Source: a bacterium (GTDB lineage Bacteria; Patescibacteriota; Minisyncoccia; Phycocordibacterales; UBA5272). From it: a DNA stretch of 64,000 nucleotides. A program made the translations under genes and the position numbers. The notes beneath the pieces were generated by a model, which worked only from the letters and a program-made list of their open reading frames with translations, was not told the origin of the DNA and ran no database searches. Below are positions 46,145-49,431 of this stretch, in pieces. Location of the stretch: positions 26,139 through 90,138 of the forward strand of contig JAHFMX010000003.1 of assembly GCA_023267635.1 (NCBI GenBank). The letters are read 5' to 3'. How positions within the stretch are numbered: the stretch's first letter is position 1; every line of letters begins with the position of its first letter.

Positions 46145-46211
46145 ACTACTTTAAATTTTGGAATTTGTACTATATGTGATGTAAATCTTTTTAGGATAGA
46201 ATACGGCCACT

Positions 46212-46388
46212 ATGAAGCAGAAAATTAAGGCATTGTGGGTACTGTTAGCAGTTGTGGCGCTTGGCGTCTTTTTACTAAAGGCTAATCCATCTGCTGGATC
46301 TCTTGCAGATGGACGCCCGTCCGCCGTAGGCGGATTAGGGGGAGGGTTCGTTTTAGGTCTTGATTTAGCAGGTGGATCAGCACTCTAA
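46212..46388 (+). pseudogene. secD 5' fragment (58 codons) left by insertion
   Basis: First about 25 codons are 93 percent nucleotide-identical to intact secD at 48022; then a 69-nt divergent insert, the VLGLDLAGGSA motif and a stop. Confidence 0.7.
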
Positions 46389-46418
46389 CTAAATAACCAT
46401 TGATTTTCTGAAACGAAA

Positions 46419-46448
46419 AGCACGACACCGAAGGTGTTGTGCTTTTTA
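46419..46448 (+). terminator. Rho-independent terminator
   Basis: agcacgacacc gaa ggtgttgtgct ttttaa. Confidence 0.55.
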
Positions 46449-46514
46449 ATTTATTGCGCGTAGCTTTTCTTTAGGTATTAACTGCTTGGGTGTTGATGTA
46501 TTGGTTAAAGTAGT

Positions 46515-46552
46515 GTACTCTCCTGTAAAGTACTAACTTTACAGGAGAGTAC
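46515..46552 (+). promoter_or_regulatory. 17-bp perfect hairpin sequestering the RBS of ORF 46554
   Basis: gtactctcctgtaaagt acta actttacaggagagtac; ggagag SD lies in the 3' arm, ATG 2 nt after the hairpin. Confidence 0.4.
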
Positions 46553-46553
46553 A

Positions 46554-46742
46554 ATGAAGGTTCGTAAGATGAAGCATAGGCTTCCCTCGATAACTGATGT
46601 TATCTGCTACCGAGATAGGCACGGCGTAGTGACCAAGACGTGTCATAAAACTCCTCAAGGTCACTACATTACTACAATTGCAGTTGGTCCGCCTTCCATG
46701 TCAACCAAAGAGGCTATACGGTTGGCAAAGTTGCAAACGTGA
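46554..46742 (+). CDS. small basic hypothetical protein (62 aa)
   Basis: ORF preceded by SD within hairpin; no family recognised. Confidence 0.35.
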   Translation: MKVRKMKHRLPSITDVICYRDRHGVVTKTCHKTPQGHYITTIAVGPPSMSTKEAIRLAKLQT

Positions 46743-46846
46743 GGAGGATAATTGTTTACTTTGCGAGCGCGGACTACGTCCGCGCTTTTCTTTTTATCCC
46801 CACAAAATTATTGTATATAGAACGAATGTTCTAGTATACTTACACC

Positions 46847-47857
46847 ATGAACAAGAACATAAAAATACACACCCAATCCAGTGGCAAAAATGAGAAGCCT
46901 ATTATTTATCAAGCTGCAAATGGTGCTGTTGAGCTGCGTATGGATATGAGTAAAGAGACAGTGTGGGCAAACCTCAATCAAATTGCAGATATTTTCAATG
47001 TTCAGAAAGCAGCAGTTTCAAAACACCTTAAAAATATCTTTGAGTCTGGGGAGTTAGATCAGAGGGGAACTGTTTCCAAAATGGAAACAGTTCAAATTGA
47101 AGGAAAACGTTCAATTATTCGAGAAATTGAGTATTATAATCTTGACGCCCTTATTTCCGTTGGCTACAGAGTAAATTCAAAGCAGGCGACTGAATTCCGT
47201 AAATGGGCAACGAAGACTCTCAAGGAACATATTACAAAAGGGTATACGATTAATAAGAAAATGATAGGTAAAAACTGGGAAGAATTTTCTCATGCAGTAG
47301 AATCTGCTAAGAAATTCCTTCCTAAAGAATATCAGGCGCTCACAGGTGGACAGGCACTTGATTTGGCCGAACTCTTTGCTCGTACATGGCTATCACTTGA
47401 TGCCTATGACAAACAGTCTCTTGTGATTAAGAAACCGACCAAGAAAAATGTAAAGCTCACTGCGAAGGAGTTACTCACCGCGCTTTCTGATCTGAAATCA
47501 AAGCTCATTACAAAAGGTGAGGCAACAGAACTTTTTGCGACAGACAGACACAAGGAGAGTCTAGAAGGAATTGTTGGGAATGTCATGCAGTCACTTGGAG
47601 GAAAGTATGTATATGAGACTGTAGAAGCAAAAGCAGCACATTTGCTGTACTTTGTTGTGAAGAATCATCCATTTGTCGATGGCAATAAACGAAGCGGTGC
47701 GTTTGCCTTTGTGTGGTTTTTGTAAAAAACTAAATGTTTAGATGTCGGACGTATGACACCTGAAGCACTCACCGCACTCACACTTTTGGTTGCGGAAAGT
47801 AATCCTAGAGACAAGGAAAATATTGTAGCCCTTATTATGAAATTAATAGAGAGATAA
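46847..47857 (+). pseudogene. RhuM-family / Fic-Doc protein interrupted by an in-frame TAA (47723..47725)
   Basis: RhuM-like block IEYYNLDALISVGYRVNSKQATEFRKWAT; Fic/Doc motif HPFVDGNKRSGAF; reading continues in the same frame after the TAA for 43 more codons of Doc-like sequence. Confidence 0.6.
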
Positions 47858-47952
47858 AACTTCCACTTTTCACGTTAATAGAAAAAGAAATGTTAAAGGC
47901 TACTATAAAGCGGCGCCTGTGCCGGTTTATATTGTTTATATTTATACACAGC

Positions 47953-47996
47953 CTCTACAAGGGTACCCCTTGCTAGCAAGGGGTACCCTTGTAGAG
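47953..47996. repeat. 44-bp perfect palindrome
   Basis: ctctacaagggtaccccttgc ta gcaaggggtacccttgtagag; lies 26 bp upstream of the intact secD start. Confidence 0.9.
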
Positions 47997-48021
47997 TGAA
48001 TAGTGATAGAATTGGCGCACT

Positions 48022-49431
48022 ATGAAGCAGAAAATTAAGGCATTGTGGGTACTGGCAGTGGTTGTGGCGCTTGGCGTCTTTTTACTAAAAGGGGATAAAG
48101 ATTTCGTTTTAGGTCTTGATTTAGCAGGTGGATCAGCTCTTACTTACAGAATTGAGACGTCATCTCTCCCAGAAGGCAGCGATGTTTCTGAAAGTGTAAA
48201 CGCACTTCGAGATGTTGTTGAACGTCGAGTAAACCTCTTCGGTGTTACAGAAGCAGGTGTTATGACTTCATACAGTCGTCTTGCTTCTGAATGGAGACTC
48301 GTTGTTGAACTTCCTGGTGTTACTGATGTCAAACAAGCGGCAACACTTATCGGAGAAACTCCTGTCCTTGATTTTCGTACAGCAAAGAAAGACTCTGTAG
48401 TTGGAACTTCTACAGCGGAATTTATTGCAGCGTACGAGCAAACCGCTCTTACTGGTAGATACCTTAAGCGCTCCGCTCTTGTCTTTGACCCAACTACTAA
48501 TCGCCCGATGGTTGAACTTACGTTTGATGATACTGGTGCAAAACTTTTTGCACAGATCACTAAAGCAAATATTGGAAAACAAGTTGCTATCTTCCTAGAC
48601 GGCATGCCTATCTCTGTACCTACTGTTAATGAAGAAATTACAGGCGGGAAAGCCGTAATCTCAGGAACATTCACCATTGAAGAAGCTCGTGTATTAGTTG
48701 GAAGACTAAACGCTGGAGCACTTCCACTCCCAATCACACTCGCTGGAACATCAGTTGTTGGACCATCTCTCGGAGCTGTGTCTGTAGAGAAGGGTATCAA
48801 TGCTGCTATTATCGGCTTCCTCCTCGTTTCAGCTTTCATGCTTCTTTGGTACCGTTTACCTGGACTTGTAGCGGTTGTAGCGCTCGTTTGTTACACCATT
48901 ATCAACCTTGTTGTGTTTAAGGTTGGAATTTCTCCTGCAATGATTATTATCACAGCTACATGTGTTGGATTAGCAATTGCTGTTCACAGATCAATACTAT
49001 TCGGTATTCCTGTTGCGTACGTTATTCTTGCCCTCATTCCAGGTGGACTTGTTCCAGTAACACTTACTGCAGCTGGAATTGCAGGGTTCATCATTTCAGT
49101 TGGTCTTGCAGTGGACGCAAACGTTCTCACATTTGAACGTATGAAAGAAGAGCTTCGAAACGGAAGAAGTCTTAAGGACGCAATCGATATTGGATTCACG
49201 CGTGCGTGGACCTCAATCCGTGATTCGCATACAGCGGCTGTTATTGTGGCAGTTGTTCTCTACATGTTCGGAACATCAATCGTGAAAGGATTTGCGATTA
49301 CATTCTTCCTAGGAGCAATTCTTTCTCTTGTGTCTGCGCAAATGATTACTCGTGTATTCCTCGCGTCACTTGTTCCAGCAAAGTTGGGAAGATTTATGAG
49401 GTTCTTGTTTGGTAGCGGCTTTAGCAAATAA
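48022..49431 (+). CDS. secD: protein translocase subunit SecD
   Basis: N-terminal TM, periplasmic domain, C-terminal six TM helices with SecD/SecF signature. Confidence 0.85.
   Translation: MKQKIKALWVLAVVVALGVFLLKGDKDFVLGLDLAGGSALTYRIETSSLPEGSDVSESVNALRDVVERRVNLFGVTEAGVMTSYSRLASEWRLVVELPGVTDVKQAATLIGETPVLDFRTAKKDSVVGTSTAEFIAAYEQTALTGRYLKRSALVFDPTTNRPMVELTFDDTGAKLFAQITKANIGKQVAIFLDGMPISVPTVNEEITGGKAVISGTFTIEEARVLVGRLNAGALPLPITLAGTSVVGPSLGAVSVEKGINAAIIGFLLVSAFMLLWYRLPGLVAVVALVCYTIINLVVFKVGISPAMIIITATCVGLAIAVHRSILFGIPVAYVILALIPGGLVPVTLTAAGIAGFIISVGLAVDANVLTFERMKEELRNGRSLKDAIDIGFTRAWTSIRDSHTAAVIVAVVLYMFGTSIVKGFAITFFLGAILSLVSAQMITRVFLASLVPAKLGRFMRFLFGSGFSK

Follow-up and report, generated by a model that had tools for sequence, protein, structure and literature searches.

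A duplicated secD 5' end and an interrupted RhuM/Fic/DOC gene at the border of a hypervariable region in a Nomurabacteria genome

In the stretch of DNA analysed here, from an uncultured bacterium of the Candidatus Nomurabacteria/Paceibacterota (64,000 nt of contig JAHFMX010000003.1; hereafter the window, with positions counted from its first nucleotide), a repeat scan finds the promoter and approximately the first 40 codons of secD in two copies, 1,810 bp apart when measured start to start. The upstream copy is a truncated 58-codon fragment, secD', the downstream copy belongs to the intact gene and, between them, lies a gene of the RhuM/Fic/DOC family that is interrupted by an in-frame stop codon. 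Our preferred reading, which we hold with moderate confidence, takes this block for a scar of recombination: in these Nomurabacteria a hypervariable region reaches rightwards exactly as far as the secD promoter, and the block lies at that border.

The two copies of the secD 5' end

The duplication is made up of two direct repeats, both on the + strand. The upstream copy of the first, D1 (46195..46279; 85 nt, 91% identity to 48005-48089), contains a -10-like TAGAAT (46197-46202), followed by a 9-nt leader, ACGGCCACT, and 68 nt of a secD-like open reading frame (ORF) start. The upstream copy of the second, D2 (46347..46384; 38 nt, 97% identity to 48103-48140), ends where the similarity of the upstream copy to secD stops, at 46384. 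In the downstream copy (D1 at 48005-48089 and D2 at 48103-48140, together 48005..48140), TGATAGAAT, with the -10 box at 48007-48012, is followed by the leader TTGGCGCACT and by the true secD start at 48022. These secD repeats are far above chance expectation. A preliminary description, made from the letters of the window, had reported the duplication, with a truncated upstream copy of 58 codons and an intact downstream copy, and both the repeat scan and the reading of the ORFs bear this out. It had also reported a substituted segment of 69 nt in the upstream copy: the segment is present, but it measures 67 nt (46280-46346), versus 13 nt in the intact gene.

The fragment secD' (46212..46388, + strand) encodes, in frame, the first transmembrane helix (TM1) and linker of SecD, and ends in TAA. 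It is annotated as a 58-aa gene in contigs L001/L075 (L numbers denote the loci and contigs used for comparison); its product, when used as a query, recovered only itself and no other homologue. The intact secD (48022-49431; 469 aa) and secF (49442-50311; 289 aa), both on the + strand, carry the Pfam domains of SecD and SecF, respectively, and as a pair share 89.5% nucleotide identity with those of L003. The secD'-RhuM-secD layout is identical in four independent assemblies, namely, the window and L001/L075, L002 and L076, which derive from other samples or assemblies.

The two leaders in the window mismatch at six of their nine positions, and each has its own distribution among related loci. 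In the RhuM-less loci L003, L078, L080 and L082, the ATG is separated from the -10 box by 9-10 nt with the sequence A(C/T)GGCCACT. The upstream copy of the window follows this pattern, and its leader, ACGGCCACT, is identical to that of L082. The leader TTGGCGCACT is confined to three RhuM-bearing loci: the working copy in the window, L070 and L069. Because L082 and L070 have near-identical secD starts (98.4%) and different leaders, the RhuM block would carry its own secD promoter and leader, and the leader haplotypes therefore suggest that two haplotype blocks are joined with overlapping secD 5' ends. Within the ORF, the relationship is reversed: the working secD reads GCAGTGG, as in the relatives, whereas secD' reads TTAGCAG. 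The upstream copy thus has a leader like that of the relatives together with in-ORF variants of its own (TTAGCAG and the mini-element described below), and the downstream copy has the reverse. A crossover inside the invariant ATGAAGCAGAAAATTAAGGCATTGTGGGTACTG would produce such a mosaic; it would equally be expected if a block ending inside secD had been joined illegitimately ahead of another block.

When close relatives are compared in pairs (window/L003, L082/L070, L082/L003, L078/L003 and L082/L080), nucleotide homology begins 18-22 nt (in one case 43 nt) 5' of the secD ATG; for the window and L003 it starts at 48003. Downstream of this border the order secD-secF-DsbB-cmk is conserved. The gene 5' of secD varies, encoding a 377-aa protein in L003, UbiA in L080/L081, a 476-aa protein in L082, a 68-aa protein in L078 and RhuM in L069/L070. 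Because homology in all of the close relatives starts at its -10 box, secD constitutes the right border of a hypervariable region. The block is absent from L003, L078, L080 and L082, and the left flanks of these loci all differ, so that the right flank alone is comparable. The promoter itself is well conserved: TGnTAGAAT, ending approximately 9 nt before the ATG and with no Shine-Dalgarno sequence, is seen at nearly all of ~35 related secD loci (L003-L058). Given this short distance and the absence of a Shine-Dalgarno sequence, the secD mRNA would be leaderless or near-leaderless, and the pattern suggests that leaderless secD mRNAs may be the rule across Paceibacteria. The same placement of a -10 box near the ATG is found at the RhuM gene of the window (TATACT, 6 nt before the ATG) and at a transposase gene in L077 (TATAAT, 6 nt before the ATG).

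The secD 5' end also forms a junction in other loci. L069 (9188-9300) and L070 (1620-1979) have RhuM genes that are 100% identical, and diverge after the first 19 nt of secD (ATGAAGCAGAAAATTAAGG): L070 goes on into secD, whereas in L069 there follow 30 nt of decayed secD-like sequence, then a terminator and a converging gene. L082, which shares its sample of origin with L069, has an intact secD with the other leader type. In L004, a doublet of repetitive extragenic palindromic (REP) units, a -10 box and 20 nt of a secD start lie 72 nt ahead of the true secD start. Since the window, L069 and L004 each show one, junctions have formed at the secD 5' end on at least three occasions. In L070, the secD of which is 94% identical to that of the window at the nucleotide level, an intact RhuM gene lies immediately 5' of secD; the adjacency of RhuM to secD is thus not peculiar to the window genome and, because L070 shares it, either block could have been the second to arrive. 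No upstream secD fragment is present in the 8 kb of L069 visible upstream. A candidate relic of the native promoter between RhuM and a terminator-like hairpin (T1, described below) in L070 amounted to an 11-nt match in an unconvincing gapped alignment, and was too weak to use.

The interrupted RhuM/Fic/DOC gene

The RhuM/Fic/DOC-family gene spans 46847..47857 on the + strand. Its ORF (46847-47725) encodes 292 aa, with the stop at codon 293 (TAA, 47723-47725), after which the frame continues for 43 codons to 47857. The N-terminal part matches the RhuM domain (PF13310; E = 7.4e-24, 84.9 bits, cut-off 33.7) and the C-terminal part a Doc-type Fic domain (PF02661; E = 4.1e-11), in which the HxFx(D/E)GN(G/K)R motif is present as HPFVDGNKR. 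The Doc-like toxin profile phrog_577 aligns through the stop, over residues 215-331, and there is a match to the PADLOC candidate family PDC-S23 (E = 3.8e-97). Both the family assignment and the in-frame TAA, as first proposed from the window's letters, are upheld by the two Pfam matches and by the profile that spans the stop. At least 8,000 homologues exist, mostly of 320-340 aa. The RhuM-Doc protein is 60-77% identical to thousands of proteins of ~325 aa from the Candidate Phyla Radiation (CPR), and homologues appear in their sources under names such as 'virulence protein RhuM/Fic/DOC family protein' and 'prophage maintenance system killer protein'.

In the closest homologue (P0002/L069), the TAA of the window is GAA (Glu). 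Relative to this homologue, the 43 codons past the stop contain seven synonymous codon differences and one non-synonymous difference, and the last 220 codons contain 52 and 17, respectively, the 17 including the stop. Since synonymous differences dominate, also past the stop, the gene was under purifying selection until very recently. A single GAA-to-TAA change then inactivated it, with loss of the last 43 residues and, with them, the last helices of the Doc fold; the gene in the window is accordingly a pseudogene or a truncated family member. An assembly error, or a sequencing error at the TAA, is ruled out because no fewer than three further samples or assemblies (L001/L075, L002 and L076) have identical DNA and the same 292-aa product. 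In L070, RhuM-Doc is intact (330 aa); the 3' two-thirds of the gene are ~93% identical to that of the window, and the 5' third ~60%.

The RhuM promoter region contains an operator-like palindrome, TAGAAC-N4-GTTCTA (46818..46833, + strand; read from the sequence), after which comes the TATACT that lies 6 nt before the ATG. The same upstream motif, TAGAACAAGTGTTCTA, precedes the RhuM gene of L069, and the palindrome may have a regulatory role. No gene for a Phd-type antitoxin was found 5' of RhuM-Doc, the sole upstream ORF (62 codons) having no match to Phd/YefM or to any other family. We infer that RhuM-Doc is a candidate abortive-infection or toxin-type defence gene. A RhuM gene downstream of secF in L031 was considered as a second integration, and is unsupported as such, no flanking repeats having been found.

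Small repeats, hairpins and neighbouring genes

Between secD' and RhuM lie several hairpins, for which z-scores were derived from RNA folding in comparison with shuffled sequence. T1 (46415..46447, + strand; z = -4.5) resembles an intrinsic terminator, with a 15-bp stem and a T run, and begins ~30 nt past the secD' stop. Its sequence, AAGCACGACACC-GAA-GGTGTTGTGCTT, is close to the hairpins that trail secF in the distant relatives L010, L013, L020, L030 and L032, ~2.2-2.5 kb past the secD start; a T1-like hairpin with compensatory changes is also found between RhuM and secD in L069/L070. In ~1.1 Mb of retrieved sequence, T1-like hairpins lie almost all beside secDF, either following secF or preceding secD, that of L022 being ~0.9 kb past secF. 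The next hairpin (46514..46553, + strand; -29.1 kcal/mol, z = -6.6) is perfect, with a 4-nt loop, and abuts the ATG of an orphan 62-codon ORF, ORF62 (46554..46742, + strand). It had been described as a 17-bp hairpin that buries the Shine-Dalgarno sequence of the small ORF: it does contain AGGAGA, and the stem is of 18 bp rather than 17. No copy of it occurs in any other locus compared.

ORF62 is not recorded as a called gene. It has no match in Pfam, NCBIfam or PHROG and, among 1.8 billion representatives, only two marginal matches, both to short stretches of repetitive proteins; judging from its sequence, it is probably not a real gene. Its candidacy as an antitoxin or conserved small gene is unsupported, there being neither family matches nor convincing homologues. 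A second intrinsic-terminator-like hairpin, T2 (46765..46787, + strand), separates ORF62 from RhuM, and the homology of the window to L069/L070 begins at ~46781. The T1/hairpin/ORF62 segment is found in no other locus outside this population. At the corresponding position in L069, a 116-aa ORF (7513-7863, minus strand) adjoins the intact RhuM gene upstream; it matches HTH_Tnp_1, the N-terminus of IS3-type transposases, with E = 0.0024, which is below the Pfam cut-off. A weak terminator-like hairpin (47911..47924, + strand; z = -2.1) lies 3' of RhuM. Neither the hairpins nor the palindrome described next corresponds to a known RNA, as Rfam gave sub-threshold microRNA-precursor noise alone.

Just ahead of the working secD promoter is a 44-bp palindrome (47953..47996; 22+22 nt; -39.9 kcal/mol and z = -8.4 as RNA) composed of two inverted REP units (ACAAGGGGTACCCTTGT). 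The repeat scan confirms that it is perfect, as had been reported, with the arms CTCTACAAGGGTACCCCTTGCT and AGCAAGGGGTACCCTTGTAGAG being 100% complementary; each unit, CAAGGG(G)TACCCTTG, is imperfectly palindromic, one base being bulged out. Only 10 nt separate the 44-bp palindrome from the secD -10 box and it, therefore, occupies the -35 region; an effect on secD transcription would be speculative. The exact doublet is rare, recurring in only one other contig of the metagenome collection, L077, where 3 nt lie between it and the TATAAT of a gene for an IS200-like Y1 transposase (Y1_Tnp, PF01797). In L038, a Y1 transposase gene homologous to that of L077 (51% identity) has related REPs (ACATAGGGGTACCCT) on either side and secD directly downstream. 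The doublet of L004 is at the same distance from the secD -10 box as in the window, and L010 has a doublet 4 kb 5' of secD. The preliminary description had suggested a search for similar palindromes at the ends of integrative elements: nothing identifies this one as such an end, and the examples in L077 and L038 link its REP family to Y1 transposases. It was also considered as a terminator of the upstream gene, and rejected: no T run follows it and, in L004, it lies between divergently transcribed genes. Viral contigs contain no match to it.

The doublet fits the description of REPINs (REP doublets forming hairpins) and the associated REP-associated tyrosine transposases, RAYTs (Bertels and Rainey 2011, PMC3116915; PMC3337134). 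The likeness lies in the two inverted, imperfectly palindromic REP units (CAAGGG-G-TACCCTTG) that form a long hairpin, and in the Y1 gene beside the doublet in L077. The differences are that the arms are perfectly complementary and have no spacer, that there is one doublet locus per 11-kb unit in the 64 kb, a high copy number not being seen in the window, and that no RAYT/Y1 transposase gene lies within the window. A literature search found no paper that treats REP, REPIN or RAYT elements together with Patescibacteria.

The substituted segment of secD' holds a mini-element of 64 nt with two hairpins (46280..46343, + strand), which is in frame in secD', scores 88 bits with the covariance model R1 and, as RNA, folds with -33.3 kcal/mol (z = -2.8). 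In all, R1 finds the mini-element at four loci in three genomes with 39-88 bits. The second copy in the window (23551-23483, minus strand; 81 bits) directly precedes the gene for transfer-messenger RNA (tmRNA), a third is in the intact secD of L021 (9940-10003; 86 bits), at the same codon position as in secD', and the fourth lies between cmk and tuf in L013 (14963-14903; 39 bits). In the SecD of L021, a distant relative with 65% amino-acid identity, the mini-element contributes an 18-residue insert, TNPSAGSTADGRPSTNGG, after TM1; its shared position with the insert in secD' would be due either to a preference for this target site or to a 5' patch that was transferred laterally. Among the copies, the stem of hairpin 1 is kept, with an A-U to G-C compensatory change, and hairpin 2 differs in sequence with its pairing always kept. 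At the ends, CTAA...TTAG alone is shared, with no clear terminal inverted repeats beyond it and no target-site duplication.

The mini-element is thus a small repeat dispersed over several loci, and the variable linker that follows the first transmembrane helix of SecD tolerates it. That the 67-nt segment is random GC-rich filler is ruled out by the dispersed copies. A role as a conserved pre-tmRNA leader is likewise rejected, the tmRNA of L013 being without it and the L013 copy lying between cmk and tuf; a link to GIY-YIG genes is unsupported, and viral contigs contain no match to the mini-element. At the second copy, the right end, TTAGGGGAG, overlaps the 5' end of the tmRNA, GGGGAGCG; this tmRNA (window 23096-23487) was found by Rfam and missed by ARAGORN. 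Just upstream, on the same strand, are a small GIY-YIG gene (23583-23849) and smpB (23853-24287). Genes can acquire in-frame insertions of miniature repeats, the Rickettsia palindromic elements among them. The mini-element resembles these in being dispersed, in having two hairpins and in lying in frame in both the SecD of L021 (18 residues) and secD', but differs in being known from four loci in three genomes only, with no target-site duplication.

On a larger scale, the window contains a perfect tandem duplication of 11,002 bp (39500-50501 = 50502-61503; 0 mismatches) that is bounded by a 9-nt microhomology, GCAGGTGGT. Because of it, the whole locus is present twice, the second copy lying at 57195..59139 (+ strand), displaced by 11,002 bp. 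The 11-kb unit holds two paralogues of 399 and 386 aa, an adh_short gene, an SSF transporter, the secD'-RhuM block and secDF. In L001, a contig assembled independently from short reads, the unit is present once, although the assemblers used for such data collapse perfect repeats; the duplication is either real and very recent or a product of assembly. Its right end lies just before ~1.5 kb that are inserted, relative to L003, between secF and the DsbB-like gene (window 61560-62900, L001 12571-13790), and that comprise two small ORFs and a Zeta_toxin/AAA_33 gene. With the RhuM block 5' and this gene 3', toxin-type cargo therefore flanks secDF on both sides.

Directly 5' of the upstream secD promoter, two overlapping ORFs of 230 and 364 aa (window 44361-46144) have ~28% GC, versus ~42% in the flanks. 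Neither has a Pfam match; the 230-aa product weakly matches phrog_8983, and the 364-aa product has a PP-loop-like motif, SGGIDS. The pair looks like foreign cargo of the variable region. The 399- and 386-aa genes (window 39523-41854) are adjacent and paralogous, with ~70% nucleotide identity internally and 88% at their ends, and have no Pfam match. They lie downstream of a nitroreductase-YcaO pair, with which they may form a cluster for a ribosomally synthesized and post-translationally modified peptide.

Origin of the block and comparison with known systems

If the block is a recombination scar, as we prefer, it would join two pieces that overlap in their secD 5' ends, with neither having replaced the other. 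One would consist of the native leaderless promoter and leader (TAGAAT-ACGGCCACT-ATG) with the first ~173 nt of a mini-element-bearing secD allele; the other would consist of T1, the orphan hairpin and ORF region, RhuM-Doc, the REP doublet and a secD promoter and leader of its own (TAGAAT-TTGGCGCACT-ATG). The exchange could have proceeded via the conserved first ~35 nt of secD, or via a homologous secD anchor and an illegitimate join at 46384/46385. The old promoter and the 58-codon secD' would thereby have been stranded, insulated by T1, and transcription of the working secD would start at the promoter that the RhuM block carries with it. The single GAA-to-TAA change would have inactivated RhuM-Doc in a later step.

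Several observations weigh against this account. There is no empty site with both flanks conserved, the left flank differing in every relative, and the likeness of T1 to the secF terminators of other lineages is not accounted for. The junctions in L069 and L004 are both at secD +19/+20, which could point to a site-specific mechanism. The D2 repeats of both window copies share an 'A' relative to L003/L070, which hints at an intragenomic origin or at gene conversion. Lastly, the RhuM-P1-secD adjacency is common to the window and L070, with ~93-94% nucleotide identity in both the 3' part of RhuM and secD; this similar divergence suggests an inherited arrangement. The RhuM block may, therefore, be the older resident, and the left block, with its low-GC ORFs (230 and 364 aa), its promoter of the native type and secD', the newcomer.

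The preliminary description had seen in the block the scar of a site-specific integrating element that brought a replacement secD start. In such a scenario, an attP mimicking the secD start, with its core in the first ~20 nt, would have recombined through an enzyme since lost or acting in trans (for example, a host Xer-type recombinase, as used by integrative mobile elements exploiting Xer, IMEX), and a replacement promoter and 5' end would have been supplied. Target-derived direct repeats, D1 and D2, do flank the block, their reciprocal leader/ORF mosaic fits a crossover in the first ~35 nt of secD, the two further independent junctions lie at +19/+20, and in the window and L069 alike a terminator comes directly after the truncated secD, as expected of a device to block read-in from the host promoter. 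The idea of incoming DNA with a replacement secD start thus fits the leaders, TTGGCGCACT being confined to RhuM loci and ACGGCCACT being as in RhuM-less ones. Site-specific mobility, and with it a self-mobile element, is unsupported. As had been noted, no integrase remains: a Pfam scan finds no recombinase domain, of a tyrosine or serine integrase or of a transposase, in the block, in the 11-kb unit, in the 11 kb upstream or in the 2 kb downstream. No second copy, free copy or larger version of the block was found, and viral contigs contain neither a mimic of the secD 5' end nor a close RhuM relative, the best there being partial and 43% identical. Moreover, the upstream copy retains ~150 nt of near-perfect secD past the putative core, far beyond a typical att site, and, where RhuM lies beside secD in L069/L070, the 8 kb upstream contain nothing that resembles an attL. 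We consider this origin unlikely. More doubtful still is a broader version, in which small integrase-less IMEX-like islets that depend on a host or trans-acting recombinase, each with a terminator at one end and a replacement leaderless secD promoter at the other, would repeatedly use the start of secD (~20 nt, ATGAAGCAGAAAATTAAGG) as a dedicated attachment core in Nomurabacteria; if it were true, defence or toxin cargo such as RhuM-Doc could be swapped in and out with no disruption of an essential export gene.

A local origin, by tandem duplication of the secD 5' segment through slippage or microhomology, followed by deletions, insertions (the REP doublet and the mini-element) and divergence, is also improbable, even if the perfect 11,002-bp duplication with its GCAGGTGGT microhomology indicates that such events may occur in this very window. 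The derived 'A' in D2 common to both copies would follow naturally, and T1 resembles secF terminators elsewhere, as if a whole secDF copy had been internally deleted. Such a duplication, however, predicts similarity upstream of the two promoters and between the regions downstream of T1 and of secF, and none is seen; nor would divergence in place yield leaders that differ at six of nine positions and each match a separate external haplotype. One might suspect faulty assembly, or a chimera formed from two strains, in a metagenome-assembled source with a perfect 11-kb repeat that could itself be an assembly product. Such an artefact is very improbable, given that the same arrangement recurs in contigs from other samples and assemblers (L001/L075, L002 and L076), and that imperfect repeats of 85 and 38 nt are too short to produce a chimera in a k=141 graph.

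The feature is ordinary in kind, presenting no new kind of system, and its value is descriptive. The genomes of the CPR are tiny and little is known of how they exchange accessory and defence genes; here is a sharply bounded variable region at the promoter of an essential gene. The stranded promoter and 5' gene fragment illustrate what would be a failed or incomplete replacement, and RhuM-Doc (PDC-S23) offers a natural case of a candidate defence or toxin gene inactivated only recently through one base change. Additionally, two small repeat families are documented: a REP doublet tied to Y1 transposases, and a mini-element that can be translated inside SecD.

Two known processes invite comparison with the recombination scar proposed here. 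In homology-facilitated illegitimate recombination, or a Campbell-type single crossover, during natural transformation, DNA is inserted beside an anchor with no need of a recombinase, and the anchor may be partly duplicated. In the present case, secD would be a possible homologous anchor, and is partly duplicated; the 46384/46385 junction differs in having no obvious microhomology, and competence has to be assumed. In Escherichia coli, e14 and phage 21 integrate inside icd and bring a replacement gene end. The secD locus differs from these in that the 5' end and promoter are duplicated rather than the 3' end, that the block is of 1.8 kb with no integrase and with no excision product or second copy known, and that the near-identity, about 135-190 nt, is longer than the usual att core. 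It is like them in that the target gene is kept whole by a substitute end, with a diverged partial duplicate at the other junction.

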